From contig JBIOVX010000147.1 in assembly GCA_044868005.1 (NCBI GenBank), forward strand, positions 28,036 to 92,035: DNA of 64,000 nt. The letters run 5' to 3'. The stretch comes from Thermoanaerobaculia bacterium. Lineage in GTDB: Bacteria; Acidobacteriota; Thermoanaerobaculia; Multivoradales; UBA5704. The notes under the pieces were generated by a model that had not been told where the DNA came from, did not search any database, and saw only the letters and a program-made list of their open reading frames with translations. The first letter of the stretch is position 1. Every line of letters starts with the position of its first letter. A program made the position numbers and the translations under genes. This document shows positions 26,409-41,277 of this stretch, piece by piece.

Positions 26409-28706
26409 ATGGCCAAGAACCTGCTGATCGTCGAAAGCCCCGCCAAGACCCGGACCTTGAAGAAGTTCCTCGGCCGGCAGTACGCCGTCGAGGCTTCGGT
26501 GGGGCATATCCGCGACCTGGTCAAGAAGGACATGGGGATCGGGCCGGACTACGAGCCGCGCTACGAGGTGCTCGCCGCCAAGAAGGACGTGGTGAAGAGG
26601 CTGCGCGACGCGGCGAAGGAAGCCGAGACCGTCTATCTCGCCCCCGATCCGGATCGCGAGGGGGAGGCCATCGCCTGGCACATCGCCGAGGTCCTCAGCA
26701 AGGACGCCAAGGACGTGCGGCGGGTGACCTTCAACGAGATCACCAAGGGCGCGGTGCTCAAGGCCCTCGAGCATCCGGGCGTCATCGATCTCAAGAAGGT
26801 GGACGCCCAGCAGGCCCGCCGCGTGCTCGACCGTATGATGGGCTTCCGCCTCTCGCCGCTCCTCTGGGAGAAGGTCAAGCAGGGCCTCTCCGCCGGCCGC
26901 GTGCAGTCCGTGGCCCTGAAGATGGTCTGCGACCGCCAGGCCGAGATCGAGGCCTTCCGTCCTGAGGAATACTGGAACCTCGGCGCCGATCTCAAGGCCT
27001 CCCAGCCGCCGATCTTCAACGCCCGCCTGCACCGCATCGAGGGCCGCAAGGCCGAGGTCGAAAACGGCGAGCAGGCGGCACGCATCGTCGGCGACCTGGA
27101 GAAGGGCCGCTTCACCGTCGCCAAGGTGGAGCGCAAGGAGTCGCGGCAGCGCCCGTCGCCGCCCTTTATCACCAGCCGCCTGCAGCAGGAGGCGGCGCGC
27201 CGGTACGGCTTCTCCGTGAAACGCACCATGGCCCTCGCCCAGGGTCTCTACGAAGGGCGCGAGGTCGGCGACCGCGGCTCGACCGGTCTCATCACCTACA
27301 TGCGCACCGACTCGACCCGCGTCGCCGAGGAGGCGCTCACGGGCGGCCGCGAGCACATCGCCGCCGCCTACGGTCCGGACTCGCTCCCCGAAAAGCCGAA
27401 CGTCTACCAGTCCAAGGCGGGTGCGCAGGACGCCCACGAGGCCATCCGGCCGACCAGCTTCGACCTGCCTCCGGACGCGGTCCGGGACTTCCTCAAAGAG
27501 GACGAGTGGAAGCTCTACAAGCTGATCTGGGACCGCTTCATCGCCTCTCAGATGCTGCCCGCCGTCTTCGACGTCACGCAGGTGGACGTCGAGAACGGCC
27601 CGTACGTGCTGCGCGCCTCCGGCAAGGTGCTCAAGCGGCCCGGGTTCCTGGCCGTTTACCGCGAGACCCCGGACGAGGACGCGGGCGAAGAGGCCAACGG
27701 CGAAGGCGCCATGCTGCCGCCGCTCGCCGAGGGCGAGACGCTCGATCTGGTGAAGCTCCTCTCCGAGCAGAAATTCACCCAGCCGCCGCCGCAGTACAGC
27801 GAGGCCACTCTGGTGAAGGTGCTGGAGGAGAACGGCATCGGCCGCCCCTCGACTTACGCCACCATCCTCTCCGTGCTCACCGACCGCGACTACGTCGATC
27901 GCGTGGCCGGGCGCTTCCGTCCCACCCCCCTCGGCCGGCTGGTCAACGACATGCTCCAGAAGGGGTTCAACGACATCCTCAACGAGGGTTACACCGCGGC
28001 GCTGGAGGAGCAACTCGACGAGATCGAAGGCGGCCGGCTCGAATGGAAGCAGGCGGTGGCCGATTTCGATCAGAAGTTCAGCCGCGACCTGGAGACGGCG
28101 GGCGAGCAGATGCCCAACGTCAAGCGCGAAGGCGTGCCCCTCGACGAGACCTGCCCCGAGTGCGGCTCGCGCCTGCTGATGCGCTTCGGCCGCTTCGGTC
28201 CGTTCATCGCCTGCAGCAACTATCCGGAGTGCAAGTACACCCGCAACGTCGAGGAGCCGGCGGCGGCCGAGACGCCCGCGGCGTCCGCCAACGGCGGCGC
28301 CGAAGAGGAGATTCCGCCCTGCGAGGTCTGCGGCCGGCCGATGGCGCTCAAGCGCAGCCGCTTCGGGACCTTCTACGGCTGCACCGGATATCCGGAGTGC
28401 AAGAACATCCGCAAGACCGGACCCGAAGCCGCGCCGCCGAAGCCCACGGGCGTGCCCTGCCCGGAGTGCGGCAAGGGCGAGATCGTGGAGAAGCGCTCGC
28501 GTCGCGGCAAGACCTTCTGGTCGTGCAACCGCTATCCGGACTGCAAGTTCTCGCTGTGGAAGAAGCCGGTGCCGCGCGAGTGCCCGGTGTGCGGCGCCAA
28601 CTTCCTGCTCGAGAAGGTCACCAAGAAGCACGGCGTCCAGTACGTCTGCAACACCGAAGGCTGCGAGCACGTGGAAGACGCGGCCGAGGTGGAAGTGCCG
28701 GCCTGA
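26409..28706 (+). CDS. topA: DNA topoisomerase I
   Basis: Toprim N-terminus (LLIVESPAKTRTLKKFLG). Four C-terminal C4 zinc ribbons (CPECGSRL, CEVCGRPM, CPECGKGE, CPVCGAN). Confidence 0.95.
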   Translation: MAKNLLIVESPAKTRTLKKFLGRQYAVEASVGHIRDLVKKDMGIGPDYEPRYEVLAAKKDVVKRLRDAAKEAETVYLAPDPDREGEAIAWHIAEVLSKDAKDVRRVTFNEITKGAVLKALEHPGVIDLKKVDAQQARRVLDRMMGFRLSPLLWEKVKQGLSAGRVQSVALKMVCDRQAEIEAFRPEEYWNLGADLKASQPPIFNARLHRIEGRKAEVENGEQAARIVGDLEKGRFTVAKVERKESRQRPSPPFITSRLQQEAARRYGFSVKRTMALAQGLYEGREVGDRGSTGLITYMRTDSTRVAEEALTGGREHIAAAYGPDSLPEKPNVYQSKAGAQDAHEAIRPTSFDLPPDAVRDFLKEDEWKLYKLIWDRFIASQMLPAVFDVTQVDVENGPYVLRASGKVLKRPGFLAVYRETPDEDAGEEANGEGAMLPPLAEGETLDLVKLLSEQKFTQPPPQYSEATLVKVLEENGIGRPSTYATILSVLTDRDYVDRVAGRFRPTPLGRLVNDMLQKGFNDILNEGYTAALEEQLDEIEGGRLEWKQAVADFDQKFSRDLETAGEQMPNVKREGVPLDETCPECGSRLLMRFGRFGPFIACSNYPECKYTRNVEEPAAAETPAASANGGAEEEIPPCEVCGRPMALKRSRFGTFYGCTGYPECKNIRKTGPEAAPPKPTGVPCPECGKGEIVEKRSRRGKTFWSCNRYPDCKFSLWKKPVPRECPVCGANFLLEKVTKKHGVQYVCNTEGCEHVEDAAEVEVPA

Positions 28707-28746
28707 CCTGCCGGCCTGACCGAAGCCGGAGACAACGGTAAGAAGC

Positions 28747-28828
28747 GGTCGTAGCGGCGGGCCTATGTGCCCGCCGTTTTCGTCCGTGCAACAACAGACG
28801 GCGGCCACGTAGGGCCGCCGCTACGACC
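28747..28828. repeat. BIME-like pair of inverted REP-type hairpins
   Basis: Hairpin A CGGCGGGC-ctatgt-GCCCGCCG (28755-28776). Hairpin B CGGCGGCC-acgtag-GGCCGCCG (28799-28820). Alternative 14-bp outer stem GGTCGTAGCGGCGG/CCGCCGCTACGACC. Confidence 0.65.
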
Positions 28829-28852
28829 CTTCGGCGTCTCGTTGTATCCCCT

Positions 28853-30127
28853 ATGAAAGAATCCCCCGCCATGCCCGACCTCCTGATCCACAACCTCGCC
28901 GAGGTGGCCACCCCGGAGGGTTCCGAACCGCAGCGCGGGCCGGACCAGCGCCGGGTGCGCCGGATACGCGGCGCCGAGGTGGTCTGCCGCGAGGGCCGCA
29001 TCGCCTTCGTCGGACCGCCGGAGGAGCGGCGGCGCCTCTTCGGCGAGATGGACGGAGCGGAGCGCCTGGACGGCGGAGGCGGCACGCTGATCCCCGGGTT
29101 CGTCGATCCGCATACCCACCTCCCCTGGGCCGGCAGCCGCGAGGAGGAGTTCGCGGCGCGACTGGCGGGCAAGACCTATCAGGAGATCGCGGCGGCCGGC
29201 GGCGGCATCCTCTCCACCGTGGCCGCCACGCGCCGGGCGAGCGAGGAGGAGCTCGCCGCGGGCGTCCTGCGGCGGCTCGACCGCATGCTCGCCTGGGGCA
29301 CGACGACCGCCGAGGCGAAGAGCGGCTACGGCCTCTCCCGCGGCGACGAGCTGAAGCAGCTCCGCGCCGTGCGCCGGGCCGCCGAGAGCCATCCGGTGGA
29401 TCTCGCCGCCACCCTGCTCGCCGCACACGAGGTCCCTCCCGAGCACCGGCAGGACCGGCGGCGCTATCTCGATCTCATCTGCGACGAGATCGTGCCGGCC
29501 ACCGCCGAGGCCGGCCTTGCCCGCTTCTGCGACGTCTTCTGCGAGGAGGGAGTGTTCACCGCCGAGGAGTCCCGCCGCGTGCTCGTCGCCGGCGTTCGCC
29601 ACGGGCTGCTCCCACGGCTGCACGCGGACGAGTTCGTCGACTCCGGCGGCGCCGCGCTGGCGGCGGAGCTGGGTGCGCTCTCGGCGGACCACCTGATCGC
29701 CGTCTCGCCGGCCGGCATCGAAGCCCTGGCGCGCTCCGGAGTGACCGCGGTGCTGCTGCCCGGCACGAGCTTCTTCCTCATGAAGCACCGCTACGCTCCC
29801 GCCCGCCAGCTCGTGGAGGCCGGCGTGCCTGTGGCACTCGCGACGGACTGCAATCCGGGCTCCTCCCATACCGAGTCGATGCCGATGGTGGTGGTGCTGG
29901 CCGTCTTCGAGCTCGGCCTCACCATCGAGGAGAGCCTCACCGCCTCCACCCTCAACGCCGCCTGCTGCCTCGGTCTCGGCGGGGAGATCGGCTCGATCGA
30001 GACGGCCAAGCGCGCGGACCTCGTCCTGCTCGACGCGCCCAACCTCCTCCACCTGGTCTACCACTACGGCATCAATCCCGTCGCCGCGGTGGTCAAAGGG
30101 GGACGGGTGGTCCGGCGGGCCGGTTGA
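28853..30127 (+). CDS. hutI: imidazolonepropionase
   Basis: …GFVDPHTHLPWAGSR…AAGGGILSTV… amidohydrolase motifs. Alternative start at ATG 28871 (MPDLLIHN…). Confidence 0.9.
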   Translation: MKESPAMPDLLIHNLAEVATPEGSEPQRGPDQRRVRRIRGAEVVCREGRIAFVGPPEERRRLFGEMDGAERLDGGGGTLIPGFVDPHTHLPWAGSREEEFAARLAGKTYQEIAAAGGGILSTVAATRRASEEELAAGVLRRLDRMLAWGTTTAEAKSGYGLSRGDELKQLRAVRRAAESHPVDLAATLLAAHEVPPEHRQDRRRYLDLICDEIVPATAEAGLARFCDVFCEEGVFTAEESRRVLVAGVRHGLLPRLHADEFVDSGGAALAAELGALSADHLIAVSPAGIEALARSGVTAVLLPGTSFFLMKHRYAPARQLVEAGVPVALATDCNPGSSHTESMPMVVVLAVFELGLTIEESLTASTLNAACCLGLGGEIGSIETAKRADLVLLDAPNLLHLVYHYGINPVAAVVKGGRVVRRAG

Positions 30128-30183
30128 CGTAGAATCGAGCCTTCGCGGCGACCCCAAGCAGTCGATTCCTCAGGAGATCGACG

Positions 30184-30633
30184 ATGAACCCCAAGATCCT
30201 CGCCCGTTTTCTCCTCACGGTCCTGCTGCTGGGCGTGGCGATGGCTTCCGCCTTCGCCGGCCAGGAGCAAGGCCGGCCTGAAACCGGCGGCAAGGAGATC
30301 GTCACTCCCTCCGGCGTGAAGTATGTAGATCTCAAGATGGGTGAGGGAGGCGAGGCCGCGAACGGCAAGATCGTCGAGGTCCACTACGTCGGCTGGCTGG
30401 AGAACGGCACCAAGTTCGACTCCAGCCGCGACCGCGAACGGCCTTTCACCTTCCGCCTCGGCACCGGCGACGCTCTCAAGGGATGGGACGAAGGGCTCCT
30501 CGGCATGAAAGTGGGCGGCAAGCGCAAGCTCGTCATCCCGCCCGAGCTCGGATTCGGCAAGCAGGGCGTCGGCAGCGTGGTGCCGCCGAACGCCGTGCTG
30601 CTCTATGAGTTCGAGTTGTTGGCGGTGCGGTAA
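30184..30633 (+). CDS. secreted FKBP-type peptidyl-prolyl cis-trans isomerase
   Basis: Signal peptide, then VEVHYVGWLENGTKFDSSRDR…FRLGTGDALKGWDEGLLGMKVGGKRKLVIPPELGFG. Confidence 0.9.
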   Translation: MNPKILARFLLTVLLLGVAMASAFAGQEQGRPETGGKEIVTPSGVKYVDLKMGEGGEAANGKIVEVHYVGWLENGTKFDSSRDRERPFTFRLGTGDALKGWDEGLLGMKVGGKRKLVIPPELGFGKQGVGSVVPPNAVLLYEFELLAVR

Positions 30634-30644
30634 AGGATTCGTCC

Positions 30645-30686
30645 TGGGTCTTGGGTCTTGAGGAGAAATTCAAGACCCAGGACCCA
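30645..30686. terminator. 17-bp hairpin built from heptamer units, between convergent genes
   Basis: TGGGTCTTGGGTCTTGA-ggagaaat-TCAAGACCCAGGACCCA (one G:U). Arms are GGGTCTT/AAGACCC heptamers. Confidence 0.7.
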
Positions 30687-30703
30687 AGACTCAAGACGTG
30701 CTT

Positions 30704-32395
30704 CTATTTCTCCACCTCGTACACCGGCCGGATATCCACCGGCACGTCCGCCAGGCGCGCGATGGCTTCCCGGATCGGCGGGGTGGCCTTGCCGTAGGTG
30801 TCGAGGAAGCGCTTCGTCCCCTCGTAGTCGCCCAGCGCCTGCAGCATCAGCATGTCGTGCAGCAGGTCGCGGATGGCGCCGGGGAACTTCTCGGAGACGG
30901 CGCGGAAGCGGCCGTTGGCGTCGATCTCCAGCGCGCCCTTTCCCTGAAGATAGTTGAACTGCGCCACCACACCCTGGCCGTGGGCCTCGTCGACGCCGAA
31001 GCGCGCGGCGCGGAAGAGGCCGGCCACGTAGGTGGGCTCCAGCGACCGCCGCAGCTCGGCCGGCATCTCCTTGCGGTCGATGAGGGCGAGGATGTTGTAG
31101 ACGCCCATCACGTCGGCCTTGGCCTCCTCCAGCGTGCCGAACAGCTCCTTGAGCTCCTTCCGCGCCTCGGTCTTGCGGCCGTTGACCGTGATGGTGCCCG
31201 GCCCCAGGCCGTGCGACAGCTCGTGATGGAGCACCTCGTTGAGGTAGGCGTCGAAGGAGACGTCCTTCACCTGCGCCGGATCGAGCACGCGCTCGGCGAT
31301 GGGCAGCAGGATGCGGTCGTACTTCGCCCGCATGGTGTTGCGCAGCAGCACCTTCTTCGATCCCTTGGCCTCGCGCACCCGCTCGTCGTTGGGCAGGTTG
31401 AAGGCGATCGTCTGCACGCCGGCCCGGGTTTCGCCCGAGCTGTAGACCGTATCCACCACCTGGATCGGGCTCTCGGTGCCGCGGTTCAGGTTCTTGTGCT
31501 CGTCCGGAATCGGCAGGTTCCGCTCCAGCCACGGCAGCCGCTCCTTGTAGCGGACGAGCGCGGCCGATTCCTCCGGCAGATTGACGGTGACGAAGGCCTC
31601 GAAGGAGGCCTTGTAGCCGAAGAGCTCGTCCTCGTAGGTCTCGTACGGACCGATGGTGACCTCCACCGGCGCGTCGAGGTCCATCCAGGCGAGGTCGCTG
31701 GCGTAATAGTCGTCGTTTTCGAATGCGGCGGCGCGCAGCTCGAGGAACTTCTTGAGCGAGGCGTTGCCGGTGAGCGCCGCCGCCTCGCGCAGGAGGTTGG
31801 CGGCCGGCTTGAGCCACTCGGCGTACTCGCGCGAGTAGGGCACGGCCGTGAGGCTGCGGTCCTGGCCGCGGCGGATCGCCGTCACCGTCGAGGTGAACGT
31901 CTCCTTCTCTCCAGGATGCTTGGCGATCCAGCCCTCGAATTCCTCCTTCGTCATGTCCTCCGGATAGGAGCCCGCTCCCGGTGGATGGGGCTTGTCGCCG
32001 ATGAACGGCTGGCGCTCCGCCAGACGGTCCCAGGGTCCGAAGTTGAGCGTGAAGTATTGGCGCGCCGCCTCCGCGTGCTCGCCCTGGTAGCCCGCGAGCC
32101 ACTGGCGCATCTCGGGATTGCCGATCCAGGCCTGGCGCAGGAAGATCTCATCCATCAGCCTGGCGGCCTCCACCAGCTTGGCGAGCACCTGCCGGTCCTC
32201 GGCGGTGAGCGCCGAGAGGTCCGCCGAGAGAGGAACGGCGGCAAATTGCGCCAGCCGCTTTTGGACGTCAGCCACGATCCGCGGCTCTCCCTTCTGCTCC
32301 TGCTTCTGTGGAGCCGTGTCGTTCGAGGCCGCGTTGTCGGCAGCCCGGCAGGCGAGGACAGCCAGGCCCGCCAGGCAGAAGATCATGAGGCGCAT
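30704..32395 (-). CDS. secreted zinc metallopeptidase, DPP III (M49)-like
   Basis: GGAGGAGG SD before ATG 32395. Signal MRLMIFCLAGLAVLAC. HHELSHGLG plus LEEAKADVMG, resembling the M49 HExxGH / EExxAE pair. Confidence 0.8.
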   Translation of the reverse strand: MRLMIFCLAGLAVLACRAADNAASNDTAPQKQEQKGEPRIVADVQKRLAQFAAVPLSADLSALTAEDRQVLAKLVEAARLMDEIFLRQAWIGNPEMRQWLAGYQGEHAEAARQYFTLNFGPWDRLAERQPFIGDKPHPPGAGSYPEDMTKEEFEGWIAKHPGEKETFTSTVTAIRRGQDRSLTAVPYSREYAEWLKPAANLLREAAALTGNASLKKFLELRAAAFENDDYYASDLAWMDLDAPVEVTIGPYETYEDELFGYKASFEAFVTVNLPEESAALVRYKERLPWLERNLPIPDEHKNLNRGTESPIQVVDTVYSSGETRAGVQTIAFNLPNDERVREAKGSKKVLLRNTMRAKYDRILLPIAERVLDPAQVKDVSFDAYLNEVLHHELSHGLGPGTITVNGRKTEARKELKELFGTLEEAKADVMGVYNILALIDRKEMPAELRRSLEPTYVAGLFRAARFGVDEAHGQGVVAQFNYLQGKGALEIDANGRFRAVSEKFPGAIRDLLHDMLMLQALGDYEGTKRFLDTYGKATPPIREAIARLADVPVDIRPVYEVEK

Positions 32396-32452
32396 GCCTC
32401 CTCCTTTCGGTTCGCATTCATCCTTCGTCAAAGAGATGATGGTCCACCTGGA

Positions 32453-32664
32453 TCAGTCGTCCACTTTGAGGTAGCGGTCGTACTGAGCTGATGCGTCGGG
32501 CGCTCCACAAGTTGTCGGATTCCTTCCAAGGCCGAAGATGGGTCTTCAGTTTCGAGAGGGATGACGATGATCCGGTCTCCTTCCTGCCGGACTTCTATCT
32601 CCTGGACGCCTTCGAGCATCTGCTTTGGGATTGTCACGCCTCGATCTGTGACTTTCATCTTCAT
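32453..32664 (-). pseudogene. AbrB/MazE/SpoVT-type antitoxin-like gene with a 1-nt frameshift
   Basis: MKMKVTDRGVTIPKQMLEGVQEIEVRQEGDRIIVIPLETEDP in one frame. The family-typical tail IFGLGRNPTTCGAPDASAQYDRYLKVDD* follows in another frame. The break is at the CCC run near 32540-32543. Confidence 0.55.
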
Positions 32665-32823
32665 GGGTGTTCTCCTCGGTGCCAGAGGTGAGCCCAACGA
32701 ATATAACAGCGCTCTCCGAGGAGTCGGGAACCTTCGCCTCCGCGTACGATGGCATACCGCTCGCATCCCGGCAAAGCGGATGCCCCTCCACTCTCGGAGG
32801 GAGCGCAATGCGAGGATCGAGCC

Positions 32824-33297
32824 ATGGCCGAGAGAGTCAAGCCCTACAAGTCCGGCGTCAACTACTGGCTGCTGGCCACCGATCCGGACGAGTACAGCTA
32901 TTCCCATCTGGAGCGGGATACGGCGACTGTCTGGGACGGCGTCACCGGTTACGAGGACCTGAAGACCCTGCGCGACGTCGAGCCCGACGAAGAAGCGCTC
33001 ATCTTTCACGCCGGAAGAGAGCAGGCGATCGTCGGCATCGCCCGCTTCACCTCCGATCCGTATCCCAATCCGCAGGGCACCAGCCCGGATGAGGTGGTGG
33101 TCGATATCGTCCCCCTGCGGCGCTTGGAAAGGCCGCTGCTCTTAGCGGAGCTCGAAGATCTTCCGGAGCTCCAGGACTTCGATCTGGTGAACGATCCGGA
33201 GCTCTCCGTCGTGCCCGTCTCACCGGAGCTGTGGGATCGGATCCTCGAGCTGAGCGAGGCTGCGCTGGCGCTGTCTACGCAGGAGGATCAGAAGTAG
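32824..33297 (+). CDS. EVE (PUA-like) domain protein
   Basis: …NYWLLATDPDEYSYSHLERD…VWDGV…ALIFHAGREQAIVGIARFTSDPYP…. Start at internal ATG 32824. Confidence 0.75.
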   Translation: MAERVKPYKSGVNYWLLATDPDEYSYSHLERDTATVWDGVTGYEDLKTLRDVEPDEEALIFHAGREQAIVGIARFTSDPYPNPQGTSPDEVVVDIVPLRRLERPLLLAELEDLPELQDFDLVNDPELSVVPVSPELWDRILELSEAALALSTQEDQK

Positions 33298-33342
33298 ACA
33301 GGCAGCAGACGGATCGAAGATTTTGTTGTGGAGAAAGAGACT

Positions 33343-33698
33343 TGGTGGAGGTGGTGGGAGTCGAACCCACGTCCGAGAAACGCGTATCAGGAGCCTCTAC
33401 GTGCGTATCCTTCTATTCTAAGTCTCGCCGCGCGTGCTCTGGAAGAAGGCCAACCCGGCACGGCAGCCAGCCTTGCTTTGTATCCGGATGCGTCGCAAGG
33501 CCTCCGCATCCATTGATCCGCTTTAGCGTCGTCCCGGTGGGCGCCGCGAATCAAGGCCCACCATCGGGACGTCACGAGCCCTTTTTAGGCCGCGAGGGCG
33601 AAGTTATCGTTCGCAGTTATATCTTCCGGTGTTACGAGTGGAAGCTCGACACGCCACCCCTGCTCCGCTTTGTTCCCCGTCGAAACCGGTACACCCCC
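33343..33698 (-). ncRNA. ssrA: tmRNA (transfer-messenger RNA)
   Basis: 5' GGGGGTGTACCGGTTTCGACGGGG. 3' GGACGTGGGTTCGACTCCCACCACCTCCACCA. Acceptor stem with a G3:U pair. Tag ORF GCG AAC GAT AAC TTC GCC CTC GCG GCC TAA = ANDNFALAA at 33614-33585. Confidence 0.95.
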
Positions 33699-33831
33699 AA
33701 GTTGCCAAAGAACCGAACTGCACCGAGTATAACCTACTGGGTGGAAAGGACATTCCCGCGCCAGCCGTACCCCGGTGGGGGCCGTTGAGACCGGTTCGTG
33801 CATCCTCGCCATCCCGGCAGGAGCGATTTGC

Positions 33832-34209
33832 ACCACCGTCTGGACGATTCCCACCTGGGTATGACCTCGTCGCACCGCGGTGCGAGCCCTCTGCACCGCG
33901 GTATGGACGGTTCATACCGCGGTATAAGCGGGTCCCACCGCGGTATGGCCGGGCTATACCGAGGTGGGAGTCTCTCATACCGCGGTGTAGCCCGGTCCCA
34001 CTGAGGTATGGATGGCTCATACCGCGGTATTTGGCGCCTACACCGCGGTATGGCGGCCTCATACTGCGGTGGAGACGGCCCACACTTGGGTGGGAGCCGT
34101 CCGTACCGCGGTGTGGACCGTCGCCACCGCGGTACCAGCCGCCCTTACCGCGGTGGCGATCCACCACCACTCAGTGGAGATCCCGGCCAGCCCGGTGGAG
34201 CTCCTCGGC
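33832..34209. repeat. tandem array, 18 units of exactly 21 bp, palindromic ACCGCGGT core
   Basis: Units start at 33832 + 21n. 10 of the first 16 have a perfect ACCGCGGT. The last two units lie inside the 3' end of CDS 34171-34635. Confidence 0.9.
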
Positions 34210-34635
34210 GGCGACCGCGACGGCGGCCAGGAACTCGTCGGGGCCGCTGGTGCGCAGGCGCGAGACCACCAGAAACCAGCCGCCGAGCGCCAGGATGGCT
34301 CCGAAGGGGGCCACCGCGATCAGCTTGGGGTAGAAAGGCCATAGCAGGGTGAGCAGCCCGCCGGCGGCGGCCAGGAGCAGCACCATCACCGAGGCGGTCT
34401 GGACGTAGTAGACCGATGATTCCGGCAGAAAGATCACCCGCGAGCCGTCTGTTGCATCCCGGATTTCTACTACGCCAGTCACGAGCCCCCGGCGGATTCC
34501 GGCGACGACCGGCAGGTGTAGCTTTCCGCCGGCCCCTTCGGGTTGGAATTCCGCGCCCCAGTCCTCAGCCGTCCGGCGGACGGCGGCGAGCGCTTTCTCC
34601 GCCGGGACCGCCAAGTCGATGGCGTGCTCCGCCAC
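34171..34635 (-). CDS. two-TM membrane protein of unknown function
   Basis: GTG start 3 nt after the dus stop. Two hydrophobic helices (VMVLLLAAAGGLLTLLW, IAVAPFGAILALGGWFLVV). Confidence 0.7.
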   Translation of the reverse strand: MAEHAIDLAVPAEKALAAVRRTAEDWGAEFQPEGAGGKLHLPVVAGIRRGLVTGVVEIRDATDGSRVIFLPESSVYYVQTASVMVLLLAAAGGLLTLLWPFYPKLIAVAPFGAILALGGWFLVVSRLRTSGPDEFLAAVAVAAEELHRAGRDLH

Positions 34636-34638
34636 GCG

Positions 34639-35622
34639 TTACGCGGCCTTCTCGACCAGCAGCTCGTCGAGGAACTCCTCGACCGTGGTGAGGAAGGTCT
34701 GGACGTCGGGGAGCTGGTTGATCGCCTGGCGCAGCTTGCGCCCGTTGGGCAGGCCGTGGGTGTACCAGCCGGTGAACTTGCGCAGCTTGTGGAGGGCGAA
34801 CGTGGAGCTCTCCCGCTCGGCCACCATATGGAAGTGCTCCAGGATGAGATCGCGCCGGTCGGCGAGCGTCGGCTCGCTGACCCGGCTGCCGTCCAGGCGC
34901 GCGGCGATCTGCCGGAAGATCCACGGGTTCTTGGTGGCGCCGCGGCCGACCATGACGCCGTCGCAGCCGGTCTCGGCCATCAGGCGCAGGGCGTCCTCGG
35001 GCTCGCGCACGTCGCCATTGCCGATCACCGGGATGGAGAGCGCCTCCTTGAGACGGGCGAGATGGCTCCAGTCGGCCTCGCCGGTGAACATCTGCCGCGC
35101 CGTGCGCGCGTGCATGGCTACCGCGGCGACGCCGTTGGCCTCGCAGATCCGCCCCAGCTCGAGATAGTTGCGGCGGCCGTCGTCGAGCCCCAGGCGGAAC
35201 TTGACCGTGAGGGGGATCGAGATGGCGTCGCGCACCGTGCGGATGATGGACTCGGCCAGTTTCAGATCACCCATCAGAGCGGCGCCGGCGCAACCCTTGA
35301 GCACCTTGTTGGCCGGGCATCCCATGTTGATGTCGCAGATGTCGGCCCCCAGCTCCTCGACGACGAGGGCGGCCTCGCGCATAGTGGCCGCGTCCGAGCC
35401 GTAGATCTGGATGGCGAGCGGGCGCTCCTCTTCGCTGAAGTACATCAGGTCGCGGGTGCGCTGGTTGCCCTGGACGATGGCCTTCGAGGAGATGAACTCC
35501 ATCGATACCACGCCCACGCCGCCGATCCGCCGCACGATGAGGCGGAAATCGCGGTCGGTCACCCCGGCCATGGGCGCGAGCCAGAGCGGAGGATCGATGC
35601 GGTGAGGGCCGAGGTGGACCAT
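34639..35622 (-). CDS. dusB: tRNA-dihydrouridine synthase
   Basis: …LAPMAGVTDRDFR…INMGCP…; full-length Dus TIM barrel plus helical domain. The subfamily assignment (dusB) is tentative. Confidence 0.9.
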   Translation of the reverse strand: MVHLGPHRIDPPLWLAPMAGVTDRDFRLIVRRIGGVGVVSMEFISSKAIVQGNQRTRDLMYFSEEERPLAIQIYGSDAATMREAALVVEELGADICDINMGCPANKVLKGCAGAALMGDLKLAESIIRTVRDAISIPLTVKFRLGLDDGRRNYLELGRICEANGVAAVAMHARTARQMFTGEADWSHLARLKEALSIPVIGNGDVREPEDALRLMAETGCDGVMVGRGATKNPWIFRQIAARLDGSRVSEPTLADRRDLILEHFHMVAERESSTFALHKLRKFTGWYTHGLPNGRKLRQAINQLPDVQTFLTTVEEFLDELLVEKAA

Positions 35623-35634
35623 GGCGGGGAGATT

Positions 35635-37878
35635 TTAGCTCGCCGGAGCGGTTGCAACTCTTCTCGGGTTCCGCACGCCGAGCGCGACCGCCAGGAGGCC
35701 GGCGGCCGCGCACAACGAAAGCACGGCGGCGAGCTCTTCCGGCCAGGCGCTGATCTCGAGCACGACGCGGTGGCGCCCGGCCGGGACCACGACTCCCAGG
35801 AGGGCCAGATCGGCCGGCAGCACCTGCAGGCGACGGTCTCCCGCGTGCGCCTGCCAGAAGTTCTGGAACGCCCGCTGAACGACCAGGAGCCCACCGCCGC
35901 CAGCCACGTCCACGACCAGACGATCCGGGCTCGCGGCGAGCAGGCGGACTCGGGCGCCGGGTCGATGGGGGACGGCCAGCGGGAGCACCGCCGTTGCGGC
36001 GGGCTCCGGCCGGCTGCCCAGGAGCTCGAAGGCCCGCCGCGGGGATTCCGCCGCCAGGACCCGTTCCGGCCACCAGGCCTGAGGGGCCGGCGCGGCAATC
36101 CTGTAGAAGAAGAGGGGGTCGCCCGAAAATTCCTGGCGCAGGAGGCGGGCGTGCCGGCTGGCGACCGGCGCGGGCGAAACCAGAATGCGGGCGCCCAACG
36201 CGCGGCACCAGCCGATCCGCTCATCCCAGCTCGCCCGTGACAGGCGGTAGAGCAGCAGGGTGTAAAGCTGATGGTGCATGCCGTCGATGTTCGGAGCCGC
36301 GGGATACGAGCGGCCTTCCAGGATTCCCGGGGTCGGGCCCAAGCTGAAAGCCTCGCGCTGAACCTGCCAGGAAGGGCCCTCCGCGCCGGGAGGAACCGAG
36401 GGGCGCAATCCCCACGACGGATAGGTCTGTTCGACGGGGAGGACCGGCCCGCTATCTGGACCATCTGGAGCCCCCGCGAGGGCGCGGATCCTATCCGTCC
36501 TCTCCAGAAAAACCAGCGGTTGAAGCTGGAGGAGGGCCAGCAGCTCCACTCCCAGGAGCGCGCCGGCCGAACGCCGCCGCACACCCCAGGCGGCGAGCCC
36601 GCAAAGGAGCGCCGCGACGACCAGACCGGAGAGCAGATGCTGCCGCGCCGGCGCCGGTTCTCCCCGGGGCACGCCGAGCCAGGTGCTGACCGTGGCGGCC
36701 GCGGCGGCGAGGAGCGCGCCGGTTGCCGCCATGCGGAAGGCGCTCCGCTCGCCTCCGGCGACGACGCGGTCCAGGCCTTCTCCGGCCAGCAAGGGCAGAG
36801 CGAGCGCCGTCCAGACGATCAGCTTCTCCGGCGAGCGGAATCCACCGGCGAACAGGATCTGGAGAAGATTGGCGGAGAAGCGCCCGATGCAGGCCAGCGC
36901 GAGCCCTCCGAGCGCCAGGCCGGCGAGGGGCGGCCGGCGCCTGGCGCCGGCGAACGCCAGGATCAGCGCCACGGCGCCGAAATACAAGCTGAGATAGAGA
37001 CGGGGAGGCACGCCGAAGGCCCAGAGGCCCCGGTCTCCCGGAAAAGCGGGCAAACCGAAAGGGAAGGGAAGGGCGAGCTCCAGCAGCCGGCCCGGCTGGA
37101 GCGTGAAAGCCGCCACTTCCTTGGGCAGCATTCCGTAGCCGAAGCGGAAGGTCCAGTGCGCGATCCGCAAGGTGGCCACGATCTGCGGCAGGGAGACCAG
37201 GATTCCGGCCGCCACCACGGCGGCCGCCGTCGCCAGGCCCCGGCGCCAGCCATGGGCGGGGATCGCGACGGCGACCAAAGGGACGACTCCCAGCATCACC
37301 ACGGGATCGGCGGCCAGGAGCGCGAGCCCCAGCGCGATGCCGCCGAGAGCGACTCCCCTCCTGCCGCCGCGCACGCCGCCGAGCAGCACCAACGGCAGCC
37401 AGGCGGCGGCGGTGGCCACGGTATAGAAGCTGAGGACCGAGAGCATCCATCCCGAGCCGGCGTAAGCAAGGCCGGCGAGCAGGGCCGCCGGCTTGCTCTG
37501 CGCCAGCGCCCGGGCGAGCAGCGCCATGTTCATCCCGGCGAGGAGCCAGTGCAGGCAGAGGTGCAGGTTGAACGCGGTCCAGAAGGGCAGCGCCAGGTAG
37601 AGAAGGTTGCCGGGGTAGAAGGCCATGCTGTTGGGATCGCCGCGGAAGGGTTGCCCGAGCGCCCAGGTGGGATTGGTGGCCGGAATGCGGCCCTCCCTGA
37701 GCTGGGCCGCGCCGAAGGCCTTGAGAGGAATGAAAAGCTGGGAGAGGTCGCGGAAGTAGAACGTCACCTCTCCGGAGGCCGTCGCCAGGCACACCGCGAG
37801 CCACAGCACGAGGGCTGCAGCGAGGACGAAAAGCCAACCGGCGGGGGGGTGAAGGGAAGAGAGCGGGCGTTTCGTCAC
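35635..37878 (-). CDS. YfhO-like polytopic membrane protein (putative glycosyltransferase)
   Basis: Many TM helices and a large C-terminal extracytoplasmic domain. N-terminal region …NPTWALGQPFRGDPNSMAFYPGNLLYLALP… resembles the YfhO family. GTG 37878 overlaps the upstream stop (GTGA). Confidence 0.8.
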   Translation of the reverse strand: MTKRPLSSLHPPAGWLFVLAAALVLWLAVCLATASGEVTFYFRDLSQLFIPLKAFGAAQLREGRIPATNPTWALGQPFRGDPNSMAFYPGNLLYLALPFWTAFNLHLCLHWLLAGMNMALLARALAQSKPAALLAGLAYAGSGWMLSVLSFYTVATAAAWLPLVLLGGVRGGRRGVALGGIALGLALLAADPVVMLGVVPLVAVAIPAHGWRRGLATAAAVVAAGILVSLPQIVATLRIAHWTFRFGYGMLPKEVAAFTLQPGRLLELALPFPFGLPAFPGDRGLWAFGVPPRLYLSLYFGAVALILAFAGARRRPPLAGLALGGLALACIGRFSANLLQILFAGGFRSPEKLIVWTALALPLLAGEGLDRVVAGGERSAFRMAATGALLAAAAATVSTWLGVPRGEPAPARQHLLSGLVVAALLCGLAAWGVRRRSAGALLGVELLALLQLQPLVFLERTDRIRALAGAPDGPDSGPVLPVEQTYPSWGLRPSVPPGAEGPSWQVQREAFSLGPTPGILEGRSYPAAPNIDGMHHQLYTLLLYRLSRASWDERIGWCRALGARILVSPAPVASRHARLLRQEFSGDPLFFYRIAAPAPQAWWPERVLAAESPRRAFELLGSRPEPAATAVLPLAVPHRPGARVRLLAASPDRLVVDVAGGGGLLVVQRAFQNFWQAHAGDRRLQVLPADLALLGVVVPAGRHRVVLEISAWPEELAAVLSLCAAAGLLAVALGVRNPRRVATAPAS

Positions 37879-38157
37879 GTCCCGCCCCGCACCGTGCTTC
37901 CCAGCCAGGTCGAGAGCAGAGCGGCGATCACCGCCCACTGCAGCCCGCCGGCGACCAGGCTCCAGGTCAGCAGCGGCGTGCCGTCCAGGTGCAGGTAGGC
38001 GAGGGAGATGGGGAAGTCGATCCAGGCGAGGACGTTTCCGCGGCCGAAGCTGCCCCAGGTGCGCCAGACCAGAATGGCCGTGACCAGGTGGAGCAGGTAG
38101 CCCACGATGAGGGCTGCCACCGCGGCGCGGCGCCAGGGGTGAAGGATGGGGCGCACA
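37875..38157 (-). CDS. small 3-TM membrane protein
   Basis: Hydrophobic helices. Stop coupled to the YfhO-like start. Start uncertain: the tracked ATG 38225 lies inside a heptamer-repeat element, so in-frame GTG 38157 is preferred. Confidence 0.55.
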
Positions 38158-38191
38158 GGGATAGCATATCCTTGCCGGTCAGACACTGCTT

Positions 38192-38220
38192 CAAGACCCG
38201 GGACCCAAGGCCCAAGACTC
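38192..38220. repeat. heptamer-unit element CAAGACCC-GGGACCC-AAGGCCC-AAGACTC
   Basis: Same unit family as the right arm of the 30645-30686 hairpin. No inverted partner nearby. Ends 11 nt before ATG 38231. Confidence 0.6.
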
Positions 38221-38230
38221 CTCATCTCCT

Positions 38231-38947
38231 ATGCCCTGGTACAAGAAATGGTTCGGCGAGGAGTACCTGGAGCTGTACTCCCACCGCAACGAGTCCGAGG
38301 CCGAGGAGCACGTCGACTTCGTCGAGCGCCACGTCGGAGGACCGCGGCCGCGGGCGGTGCTCGATCTCGCCTGCGGCGCCGGCCGGCATACGGCGGTGCT
38401 ACGGCGGCGAGGCTACCGCACGCTGGGAGTCGATCTGTCGCTGACCCTGCTGGCACGGAACGAGCTACCGCGGGTGGCGGGCGACATGCGGTTGCTGCCT
38501 TTCGCGGCCGGCAGCTTCGACTGGGTGCTCAACTTCTTCACCTCCTTCGGCTACTTCGAGGCTGAACGGGAGAATTTCCGCGTGTTGGAGGAGGTCGTGC
38601 GCGTCCTCGCCCAGGACGGGCGGTTCCTCATCGATCTGATGAATCCGGGAGCGGTGCTGGCGTGCCTCAAGCCCCGCGATTCGCAGGTGCTGGACGGCCG
38701 CGAGGTGGAGATGGAGCGCTGGTACGACGCCGGCCGCAAGCGGCTCAACAAGCGTATCGTGGTGAGCACGCCCGGCGAGCCCTCGCGCGCCTTCCTCGAG
38801 AGCGTGCGGCTTTACGAGCCGGAGGAGGTGACCATCGGCCTGCGCTGGGCGGGCCTCGAGGTCGCGGCCCTCTTCGGCAACTTTCAGGGAGATCCTTACG
38901 AGCGTGACAGCGAACGCCTCATCCTCATCGGTTTCAAGCCGGCCTGA
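38231..38947 (+). CDS. class I SAM-dependent methyltransferase
   Basis: Motif I VLDLACGAGRHT, followed by GVDLS. 238 aa. Confidence 0.85.
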   Translation: MPWYKKWFGEEYLELYSHRNESEAEEHVDFVERHVGGPRPRAVLDLACGAGRHTAVLRRRGYRTLGVDLSLTLLARNELPRVAGDMRLLPFAAGSFDWVLNFFTSFGYFEAERENFRVLEEVVRVLAQDGRFLIDLMNPGAVLACLKPRDSQVLDGREVEMERWYDAGRKRLNKRIVVSTPGEPSRAFLESVRLYEPEEVTIGLRWAGLEVAALFGNFQGDPYERDSERLILIGFKPA

Positions 38948-38954
38948 CCTCGCG

Positions 38955-40538
38955 GTGGACCTCGCGGCGGCGCGGCTCCTCGCGCCCCTGCCCGCCGCCT
39001 GGCTCGCCGGCCGCGACCTCGATCTGCTGGCGCCGCTGCGCTTCCTGCCGCCCGGCGGCCTGCCGTCCCTCGCCGCTCCGGCGGCCGCCAGCCGCCGCGA
39101 GCTCGCCCAGGCGCTCGCCGTCGCCAATCGGGCCTACGGCAACGAGAACGCCGACCGTCTCGCGCAGCGCTTCGCGGATCCGGCGGCGCGCGTCGTGGTC
39201 ACCGGCCAGCAGCCCGGGCTCCTCGGCGGCCCGCTCTACTGCCTGGCCAAGATGATCGCGGTTGGGCGTTGGGCCGAGGCGCTGGAGGCGGCGGGCGAGC
39301 CGGCGGTGGCCGTCTTCTGGGTGGCGACCGAGGACCACGACTGGGCCGAGGCGACGCAGACGGCGGTGCTGGCGTCCGACGGTCCGCGCGCCTTCGACCT
39401 CGGGCCCGATCCCCAGCCGCTGGCGCCGCTCGGCGTGCGCACCCTGGGGCCGACGGTCGAGGACGTGCTGCGCGGCATCGCCGCGGCCCTGCCCGGAGAT
39501 TTCTACGCCGAGTGGCTGGGCACCATAGCCCGCTGGTACCGGCCGGACGCGCGCTTCGGCGAGGCGTTCTGCCGCCTCATGGCCCACCTGCTCGGCCCCC
39601 GCTGCCCGCTGCTGCTCGACGCCATGGACCCGGCACTCAAGGCGGCGCAGCGGCCATGGCTGCGGCGGCTCGTCGAGCGCCGGCGCGAGCTGGAGGAAAC
39701 GCTCGCCCGCCGCGACGCCGAGATCGAGGCGCGAGGCCATCCCCTCCAGGTGAGCCCGCAGCGCGGCGCGAGCCCGCTCTTCCTGCTGCGCGGCGGCGAG
39801 CGGCGGCGCATCGAGTGGCGCGGCGAGGAAGGCTTCGCGCTGCGCGGCGGCGAAGGAGAGGCGGAGACGATCGCCGGCCTACTGCAGATCGTGGAGGAGA
39901 ACCCCGCCGTCGTCTCGCCGGGCGTGCTCGCCCGCCCGGCGGTGCAGGACGCGGTGCTCGGCACCTCTCTCCAGGTGCTGGGCCCAGGCGAGCTCTCCTA
40001 CATGGCGCAGGCCGCCGCCACTCATGAGGTGCTGGAAGTGGAGGCGCCCTGGGTGACCCTGCGGCCGCAGACGCTCGTCCTCGAAGCCAAGCAGATCGAG
40101 AAGCTGGAGGATCTGGGAATCCCTCTCGCCACCCTGCTGGGCGATCCGGCGGCAGTCGACCGCTGGCTCGCCGAGCGGGTCGGCGGCGACCTGGTGGGAC
40201 CGGCGCGCCGCCGCGTCGAGGAGGCGCTGGCGGCGCTGCGCGAGCCGGCCCTCGCCGCCGACGCCAATCTGGAGCGGCCGTTCGAGAAGACGCGCGAGCA
40301 GATCCTGCGCGCCCTCGACCTCTTCGGCGAGAAGGCGGTGGCCGCCGCCGCCCGCCGCAACGAGGTGGAGGGCCGCCGCGTGCAGCAGCTCCGCGAGACC
40401 TGCCAGCCGCTCGGCAAGCCCCAGGAGCGCATCGTCTCCTCGGCGCATTTCCCGGGAAAGTACGGCCGGGAATTCGTAGAGAGGTATTGGGAGCAGATGG
40501 AGCTCGACGGCGCGCGCCTGCAGGTGATCGTGCCATGA
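38955..40538 (+). CDS. bshC: bacillithiol biosynthesis cysteine-adding enzyme BshC
   Basis: VVTGQQPGLLGGPLYCLAKMI signature. Length about 530 aa. Start set at GTG 38955, just after the methyltransferase stop (tracked 38904 start overlaps it). Confidence 0.85.
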   Translation: MDLAAARLLAPLPAAWLAGRDLDLLAPLRFLPPGGLPSLAAPAAASRRELAQALAVANRAYGNENADRLAQRFADPAARVVVTGQQPGLLGGPLYCLAKMIAVGRWAEALEAAGEPAVAVFWVATEDHDWAEATQTAVLASDGPRAFDLGPDPQPLAPLGVRTLGPTVEDVLRGIAAALPGDFYAEWLGTIARWYRPDARFGEAFCRLMAHLLGPRCPLLLDAMDPALKAAQRPWLRRLVERRRELEETLARRDAEIEARGHPLQVSPQRGASPLFLLRGGERRRIEWRGEEGFALRGGEGEAETIAGLLQIVEENPAVVSPGVLARPAVQDAVLGTSLQVLGPGELSYMAQAAATHEVLEVEAPWVTLRPQTLVLEAKQIEKLEDLGIPLATLLGDPAAVDRWLAERVGGDLVGPARRRVEEALAALREPALAADANLERPFEKTREQILRALDLFGEKAVAAAARRNEVEGRRVQQLRETCQPLGKPQERIVSSAHFPGKYGREFVERYWEQMELDGARLQVIVP

Positions 40539-40548
40539 GGGAACGACT

Positions 40549-41277
40549 ATGAAGCTCGACGTGCTCGCGATCGGCGCCCACCCGGACGATGTGGAGCTGG
40601 GGTGCGGCGGAGCCCTGGCGTTGCTGGCGCGCGGCGGGCGGAAGGTGGGCATCCTGCACCTGACCCGCGGCGAGCGCGGTACCCGCGGCACGGAGGAGGA
40701 GCGGCGGGCGGAGGCCGAGCAGGCGGCCGAGGCACTGGGCGCCGCGGCGCTCGACTTCCTCGATTGCGGCGACGGCGGCCTGCGCAGCGGCGAGGCCGAA
40801 GAGGACGCGCTGATCGCCGTCCTCCGCCGCTGGCGGCCCGAGCTCGTCCTGGGACCGACGCCGCACGACCGCCATCCCGATCACAAGCGCTCCCACCAGC
40901 TCGTCGAGGCGGCCTGCTTCTACGCCGGCCTGGCAAACCGCGCCCGCGAGTCCGGCCCGCCACACCGGCCCGCGGCCGTCTTCTCCTACATGCAGCACGA
41001 TCTCTTCCCGCCGAGCTTCATCGTCGACGTGACGGCCGCCTGGGAGGCCAAGCGGGAGTCTTTGCGCGCCTATCGCAGCCAGCTCTATCAGCCGGACCAG
41101 AAAGAGGACGGCAATCCGTTCACCAAGATCTCGACGCCGGAGTTCTGGCACGCCGTCGAGGGCCGCGCCCGGCACTTCGGCCTGCTCGTCGGCGCCACGT
41201 ACGGCGAGCCGTTCTGGAGCCGGCAGCCGCTGGCCGTGGCGGACCCCATGGCCATCCTGCCCGGAGGTGTGCGTTGA
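40549..41277 (+). CDS. bshB1: N-acetylglucosaminyl-malate deacetylase BshB1 (LmbE family)
   Basis: VLAIGAHPDDVELGCGG … HPDH LmbE motifs. GAGGGA SD. Confidence 0.85.
   Translation: MKLDVLAIGAHPDDVELGCGGALALLARGGRKVGILHLTRGERGTRGTEEERRAEAEQAAEALGAAALDFLDCGDGGLRSGEAEEDALIAVLRRWRPELVLGPTPHDRHPDHKRSHQLVEAACFYAGLANRARESGPPHRPAAVFSYMQHDLFPPSFIVDVTAAWEAKRESLRAYRSQLYQPDQKEDGNPFTKISTPEFWHAVEGRARHFGLLVGATYGEPFWSRQPLAVADPMAILPGGVR

Follow-up and report, generated by a model that had tools for sequence, protein, structure and literature searches.

A real, non-coding, lineage-specific array of phased 21-bp units between a membrane-protein gene and the tmRNA gene of a Thermoanaerobaculia bacterium

The interval between a small membrane-protein gene and the tmRNA gene (ssrA) of a Thermoanaerobaculia bacterium contains a real, non-coding, and lineage-specific array of approximately 21 units of exactly 21 bp. 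The array lies within a 64,000-nt stretch of contig JBIOVX010000147.1, hereafter the window, whose numbering is used throughout. Judged from the genome comparisons below, it is one example of a wider habit of non-coding intergenic 21-bp arrays in Thermoanaerobaculia and other Acidobacteriota, and the architecture that recurs among them, ACC-NN-GGT sites set two helical turns apart, is undescribed as far as could be found. The array and its surroundings comprise the following features:

33343..33698, minus strand: tmRNA gene ssrA, tag peptide ANDNFALAA (ARAGORN and Rfam)
33726..33757, minus strand: ssrA promoter block GGGAATG ... GGTTATACT with a -10-like TATACT at 33731-33726, common to relatives that lack the array, and outside the array
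33769..33831, no strand assigned: ssrA-side continuation of the register in three degenerate units (ACCCCGGT, ACCGGTTC, ATCCCGGC)
33832..34167, no strand assigned: main array; 16 units that keep an exact 21-bp register and open with ACCGCGGT or a variant; consensus ACCGCGGTATGGnCGGnTCAT
34168..34209, no strand assigned: two degenerate units (CACTCAGT... and AGCCCGGT...) overlapping the 3′ end of the upstream gene
34171..34635, minus strand: gene encoding a hypothetical protein of 154 aa that has two hydrophobic segments; homology to relatives stops at ~34215
34639-35622, minus strand: dus, upstream of the gene for the 154-aa protein

Read in 21-nt steps from 33832, 10 of the 16 main units carry a perfect ACCGCGGT and the remainder are variants differing by 1–3 nt, the same ones that had been listed in the first-pass annotation of this DNA. 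That annotation had also counted eighteen phased units; the exact register holds, and 16 units do carry the core (33832–34167), but the last two (units 16–17) are degenerate. At the other end, it had placed the array some 130 bp from the tmRNA 5′ end, a distance that proves to be ~70 bp owing to the three further degenerate units at 33769–33831. The check that it had proposed, Tandem Repeats Finder, returned a period of 21, as did a repeat finder. ACCGCGGT occurs 14 times in the 64-kb window, with 10 of the copies inside the array, compared to a mean of 1.66 and a maximum of 5 in shuffled windows. The 8-mer is much better conserved than the loosely conserved remainder of the unit, as the earlier reading had it: the mean pairwise identity between units is 0.85 across the 8-mer and 0.41 across the other 13 positions (composition-based expectation, 0.28), though the units of a single array are not independent and such statistics overstate the significance. 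Positions A1, C2, G7, and T8 of the core are invariant, and the phase, already described as unbroken, shows no indel across ~20 units despite spacers that are near saturation. The array is 66% GC and the window 68%. No second array of this kind was found in the 64-kb window, nor is ACC-NN-GGT enriched outside the array (15 copies versus ~22 expected by composition, whole window).

Three sequencing runs of one run series, each assembled on its own, gave contigs with the identical array sequence, which is thus not an assembly artefact. Given this agreement, together with the ACCGCGGT count, the register, and the core identity, we regard the observation as real and far beyond chance. Other contigs with identical flanking proteins either carry the identical array or break at it, and no copy-number polymorphism was seen (three assemblies of one run series; two MAG contigs break at the array). 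The MAGs that carry the locus include GCA_044866565.1 and GCA_044868925.1. The array breaks short-read assembly: two NCBI MAG contigs with identical flanking genes (L092:4419-4497 and L093:4111-4176) exhibit a fold-back or chimeric junction at the array start, equivalent to ~34204 in the window. Gene callers were likewise seen to extend the upstream ORF to 162 or 165 aa, or to call a 186-aa ORF through the array (L097).

The gene for the 154-aa protein is the last in a co-directional cluster of a YfhO-like membrane protein, dus, and the 154-aa membrane protein, and the ten annotated genes at 26409–41277 (reaching ~7.5 kb below the array and 7 kb above it) are housekeeping. The other neighbours comprise topA, bshC, and genes for an amidohydrolase, FKBP, an M49 peptidase, an EVE-domain protein, a methyltransferase, and a PIG-L deacetylase. 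Among the genes at 26409–41277, we identified no DNA-binding protein or methyltransferase as a candidate partner for the array, the only methyltransferase being a small-molecule or SAM-type Methyltransf_11/25 protein, and parA/parB (or parM/parR), rep, and cas genes are absent from the annotated genes of the same interval. The skew profile contains no GC-skew switch of the origin or terminus type. An inverted heptamer-repeat pair (GGTCTTG... / ...CAAGACC; 30641–30697) between the FKBP gene, which ends at 30633, and the convergent M49 peptidase gene, which ends at 30704, is probably a bidirectional terminator hairpin. We also noted that synteny between the window (32749–33297) and relatives L001, L003, L004, and L099–L101 breaks at ssrA, where the 3′ side of the tmRNA holds the EVE-domain gene and the M49 peptidase in the window versus an IF-2B-family gene in the relatives; no integrase was seen at this break. 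In L003 (1020-1500), a 103-bp × 3 tandem repeat (1170-1483) lies directly 3′ of the tmRNA, flanked on both sides by short ...TCGCGACA... repeats, and is unrelated to the 21-bp array.

The distance from the stop codon of the membrane-protein gene to the tmRNA 5′ end is 41–151 bp in 21 related loci, compared to 472 bp here and 541 bp in a further relative, L076. In these 21 loci, which lack the array, the stop of the gene is immediately followed by the conserved ssrA promoter block found here. Nucleotide homology to the relatives runs up to 33757 on the ssrA side, including the promoter block, and resumes at 34215 inside the gene, from which it follows that the last ~12 codons of the ORF are array-derived. 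These comparisons indicate that the array is a recent insertion in this lineage, one that replaced the native stop of the gene, with the ORF now ending at an in-array TGA. L076, the closest relative with ssrA downstream (87% protein identity), holds a different ~21-bp array in its 541-bp gap (1085-1560; consensus CGGAGCCGCTGTACGGTACAT, core CTGTACGGTACA), in exactly the same position, after the stop codon of the gene and ahead of the ssrA promoter. It contains indels, stops in all frames, and higher-order repeats of 62, 83, and 146 bp, and appears from its sequence to be decaying; an alignment of the two arrays scored within the shuffle range.

The first-pass annotation had the array abutting or covering the ssrA promoter region and had listed an operator array for ssrA among the possible roles; it also recommended comparing this interval in relatives. 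The first part of this stands in so far as the array abuts the promoter block, the nearest degenerate unit lying ~11 bp upstream of GGGAATG, and this adjacency is what an operator or upstream activating array for ssrA has in its favour. The core promoter, however, is intact and lies outside the array, the same promoter does without the array in the 21 relatives (L076 has a different array), and the comparable arrays that we examined in other Acidobacteriota occupy unrelated intergenic sites, none of them beside a tRNA or tmRNA gene. The comparison thus went against the suggested tie, and we consider a role as an ssrA operator extremely improbable; a tempting but wrong link to tmRNA regulation is thereby removed.

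The array is also non-coding, although several features invite a different reading, namely that it encodes, or recently encoded, a C-terminal [H/Y]-R-G-x4 heptad tail of the membrane protein, since cut by a CGA-to-TGA change or read through. The TGA stop of the gene (34171–34173, minus strand) falls within a degenerate core and lines up with the middle (R) codon of an [H/Y]-R-G reading; units 16–17 overlap the last 12 codons and this TGA, and the residues before it (LHRAGRD LH*) are already heptad-like. Past the TGA, the gene's frame meets no stop for another 188 codons and reads as [H/Y]-R-G-x4 heptads. A 21-bp unit with a palindromic core keeps frames open by itself, as would any stop-free 21-bp unit, so an open frame is not informative here: on each strand two frames, the Y-R-G and P-R-Y readings, run unbroken over most or all of the array, and the frame of the gene continues through the ssrA promoter and 95 nt into the tmRNA without a stop. 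TGA is, moreover, a normal stop here, being the commonest stop codon among the genes of the window.

Base composition and homology both speak against a coding tail. The three codon phases of the array hardly differ in GC content (0.64/0.64/0.70), as against a GC3 of 0.79–0.94 and a GC2 of 0.40–0.55 for neighbouring genes, which agrees with the earlier remark on lower third-position GC; coding 21-bp arrays among our genome matches (below) have phase GC ranges of 0.34–0.44. The 154-aa protein has 63 homologues of 161–261 aa, the named ones from Thermoanaerobaculia or Acidobacteriota MAGs and the others from metagenomes. Among 25 that were aligned, the longer ones are extended mostly at the N-terminus and none has the repeat tail; the homologues finish 10–25 residues past an AVAA motif, and the two closest end in AAEG*. 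An intact protein tail in relatives, which the first-pass annotation had named as evidence against its view, was therefore sought and only short, unrelated tails were found. The tail translation alone matched no Pfam family and had no counterpart in a collection of 5.8 billion protein clusters, and the read-through product, used as the query, retrieved relatives for its N-terminal domain only. With four-fold-degenerate third positions also among the best conserved, the protein-tail reading is already largely refuted, and we give it next to no credence.

The constraint within the units was located by counting core departures over 143 units of 12 arrays, with the units that had triggered the genome search left out. 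Departures from ACCGCGGT number 48 at position 4, 42 at position 5, and only 2–13 at each of the other six, with all substitution types present. Given the variable positions 4–5 and the stable outer six, the conserved motif is ACC-NN-GGT. The palindromic core described earlier is thus upheld in its ACC and GGT half-sites, but CCGCGG is not the conserved unit, the centre being free to vary. In each frame, a wobble position is among the best conserved (C3 and G6, G7, or T8), so no reading frame explains the pattern; taken with the flat phase GC and the lack of a homologous tail, this bears out the view that the constraint acts on nucleic acid rather than on protein.

On the side of RNA, we found no hairpin complementarity above that of shuffled pairings, whether within the spacer or across the core (p = 0.11 and p = 0.9), and the constraint is on sequence (half-sites and phase), not on secondary structure. 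The array could nonetheless act as a 3′ UTR of the dus/membrane-protein transcript, its long imperfect duplexes terminating, stabilising, or directing the processing of that transcript before ssrA. In keeping with such a role, the minus-strand RNA of the array has a predicted fold of -244.7 kcal/mol (z = -8.9 versus shuffles), no intrinsic terminator was found between the gene and ssrA, and several related arrays begin within a few bases of a stop codon. Repeated palindromes fold automatically, however, and a strong predicted fold is therefore not evidence of a selected structure. Covariation is absent in either hairpin register, central core changes are uncompensated, and the strict 21-nt phasing has no obvious RNA rationale. 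Related arrays also occur in both orientations and in divergent promoter regions. An Rfam scan of the region yielded, beyond the tmRNA, only sub-threshold chance matches to eukaryotic microRNA families, and a scan of 13 related loci yielded nothing. An RNA-level element thus seems quite improbable.

Conserved half-sites of 3 bp around an unconstrained 2-bp centre, together with a two-turn spacing that stays exact although the spacers are near saturation, form the pattern expected for the recognition of double-stranded DNA by a symmetric dimer. The best functional reading remains, as first proposed, a phased protein-binding or methylation-target array, its units being candidate sites nominated from sequence. 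Our preferred version, which we advance tentatively and as falling a little short of probable, is that the ACC-NN-GGT units, lying where the dus cluster ends, are phased sites bound or modified by a protein that acts as a symmetric dimer. Each unit would be a dyad-symmetric site in which the half-sites and the two-helical-turn spacing are constrained, with no constraint on the central 2 bp or the 13-bp spacer. The recogniser would be a symmetric dimer, either a DNA-binding protein or a CCNNGG-type DNA-modifying enzyme, and, with all sites on one helix face, it could cooperatively coat ~400 bp. The resulting nucleoprotein block may act as a boundary or roadblock against read-through at the 3′ end of the dus cluster; alternatively, the array may be a structural or titration site, but would not be a dedicated ssrA operator.

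A narrower proposal is that the array is a cluster of methyltransferase or restriction-modification targets (candidate motifs CCNNGG and ACCNNGGT), whose densely clustered modified bases would serve an epigenetic or structural purpose. ACC-NN-GGT does contain CCNNGG, which we take to be a BsaJI/SecI-type specificity, with a free centre like that of bipartite type II sites. Conservation nevertheless reaches the outer A and T, no methyltransferase of this specificity was identified nearby (only the Methyltransf_11/25 protein), and no known biology needs phased arrays of restriction-modification sites; we regard this proposal as very improbable.

We then scanned 185,579 species genomes for runs of three ACCGCGGT cores at a spacing of 21 bp, which gave 68 loci. 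Acidobacteriota account for 17 of these and, within them, Thermoanaerobaculia for 11, with up to 5 loci per genome; Thermoanaerobaculia make up a very small fraction of the genome collection. Many of the matches, from Streptomyces, Polyangiaceae, Kineococcus, and others, repeat the unit as a whole, are strongly biased in GC by codon phase, and represent ordinary coding heptad repeats; unlike the coding-looking actinobacterial and myxobacterial matches, the Acidobacteriota arrays have flat phase GC. In viral contigs, ACCGCGGT at 21-bp spacing had 0 matches while three GC-rich palindromic control 8-mers had 1, 8, and 2, from which we take the cross-phylum list to be largely background 21-bp repeats. 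Searches of the array against plasmids and phages by BLAST returned no match, and a literature search on the motif or on such arrays in Acidobacteria returned nothing relevant.

Related genomes have 3–5 loci with one unit type, and the arrays within one genome share the array sequence and not the flanks. Going by crude gene calls, most of them are located at the 3′ end of a gene or in the gap of a convergent gene pair. Five (L030, L046, L054, L057, and L008) have the same anatomy as the array in the window, i.e., a conserved core, diverged 13-nt spacers, and an unbroken phase. In two pairs (L056/L070 and L054/L057), arrays lie next to an orthologous gene in two species, with no preferred register in a unit-by-unit comparison of L054 and L057. 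We further noted that an Acidobacteria MAG, SZAS-13, has arrays with the ACCGCGGT core and AT-rich spacers (ACCGCGGTAAATCTCTTATCA; L024:342-679, also L023, L039, and L052), arranged as two blocks in opposite orientation, with three of the four at contig ends. In a Thermoanaerobaculaceae MAG (L050:4949-5180), 11 near-identical units lie in frame with the upstream ORF, giving a PPRSQSL × 11 extension, and end 5 codons before the start of the downstream ORF (MKVGLAQIN...), making this array a further one that overlaps a gene 3′ end.

Arrays of the same period with other cores also occur in the clade, some of the cores not being palindromic. Among loci of relatives that were not selected by the core scan, L077 (1955-2399) and L079 (738-1078) hold non-coding arrays of 16–21 units of CGGCGAGCCAATTACCCCGAG, and L075 (657-824) holds 8 units in which a TTCGCCGG core is conserved and the 13-nt spacers vary, in each case just upstream of a homologous membrane-protein gene. 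Their presence in unselected loci makes non-coding arrays of 21-bp period a general trait of the clade, and, given the different core in L076 and the non-palindromic cores, one conserved factor cannot explain all of them.

The main rival to the protein-site reading is that such arrays are neutral or selfish minisatellites lacking a trans-acting partner, which arise by slippage or unequal exchange in permissive intergenic spots, their core uniformity stemming from mutational or repair bias (template switching, or short-patch conversion between self-complementary cores) rather than selection. Much of the distribution fits this: the array is absent in 21 relatives, the array at the same site in L076 has the indels and stops in all frames of a sequence in decay, the clade has many unrelated 21-bp arrays, and some of these are near-homogeneous and so look young (L050, L077). 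The preference for 3′ ends and convergent intergenic regions, where insertions harm least, would also be expected, and no candidate factor is encoded nearby. The internal pattern of the array fits it less well. Whole-unit homogenisation cannot yield 85% core identity beside 41% spacer identity, and conversion between paired cores should homogenise the centre too, yet positions 4–5 vary in nearly every array. Indels are expected with near-saturated spacers, whereas ~20 units show none, and arrays are kept at orthologous sites across species. On this evidence, we judge a minisatellite origin for the array, without any partner, somewhat unlikely.

The nearest functional analogues of the array are the tandem-repeat partition centromeres and, besides these, origin iterons. 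Plasmid and phage origin iterons are repeats of 17–22 bp set about two helical turns apart, and the iterons of the lambda origin are palindromic. The array shares their period of ~21–22 bp, the placement of sites on one helix face, and the division into a core and a looser spacer, but it has ~20 copies rather than 3–8, has no rep gene nearby, and lacks an AT-rich unwinding region or DnaA boxes, the region being 64–66% GC. Among partition centromeres, F sopC consists of 12 × 43 bp, each with a 16-bp palindrome (TGGGACCACGGTCCCA), and pTAR parS of 13 heptamers at integral helical turns (PMC3597684). Like the array, these centromeres comprise a dozen or more direct repeats in strict phase, spaced by an integral number of helical turns, with a dimer-type dyad site in each, and the F sopC core reads ACC-AC-GGT, matching ACC-NN-GGT. 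The unit of the array is 21 bp and not 43 bp, however, and the flanks of the palindrome differ from those in F sopC; the setting is a chromosomal housekeeping one, with no parA/parB nearby (26409–41277). Unlike a centromere, moreover, arrays of this kind are scattered over several intergenic sites in related genomes, and there is no similarity to plasmid records.

Other intergenic repeats bear a looser resemblance. The REP/BIME clusters of enterobacteria and pseudomonads (PMC3333891, PMC3733652) have proposed roles at the DNA level (gyrase or IHF binding) and at the RNA level and, like the array, consist of short palindromic units that are intergenic and lineage-specific. They occur in several copies per genome, frequently at 3′ ends or flanked by convergent genes and sometimes in tandem clusters, as do the arrays of related genomes. 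Unlike REP/BIME, the array has no 20–40 nt hairpin with covariation and no GTAG or CGTC tag, and its 21-bp phasing is head-to-tail rather than one of alternating units with linkers. The MIRU units of mycobacteria are 46–101 bp long and conserved over their whole length. These MIRU/VNTR loci resemble the array in being intergenic minisatellites of operons with a unit that is a multiple of three and that abuts or overlaps the upstream stop codon, while the array differs in its 21-bp unit, 8-bp core, and free spacer. A CRISPR was considered and rejected using the criteria of repeats of at least ~23 nt, unique spacers of 26–72 nt, and cas genes: the core is only 8 bp, the spacers are 13 bp and mutually related (41% identity versus 28% expected), and no cas genes lie nearby. 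We have therefore filed the array with the bacterial intergenic repeat arrays, as a member of no named family.

A bolder extension of the protein-site reading, which we think rather unlikely as a whole, is that these arrays constitute an undescribed class, in which 10–20 ACC-NN-GGT sites two turns apart at gene ends would be coated by a dedicated dimer into boundary, roadblock, or nucleoid-organising complexes. Such a class would be a chromosomal counterpart of the plasmid centromere and iteron arrays, with sister families built on other cores. Even if the arrays are functionless, dense 21-bp minisatellites break MAG assemblies, with contigs ending or turning chimeric at the array, and create long spurious ORFs (here a frame of 186–188 aa), which matters for the annotation of Acidobacteriota genomes. 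If the cores are protein-bound, the arrays would represent a new type of chromosomal cis element in a poorly studied and mostly uncultured phylum, and would offer a way to study how its members insulate their transcription units or organise their DNA.
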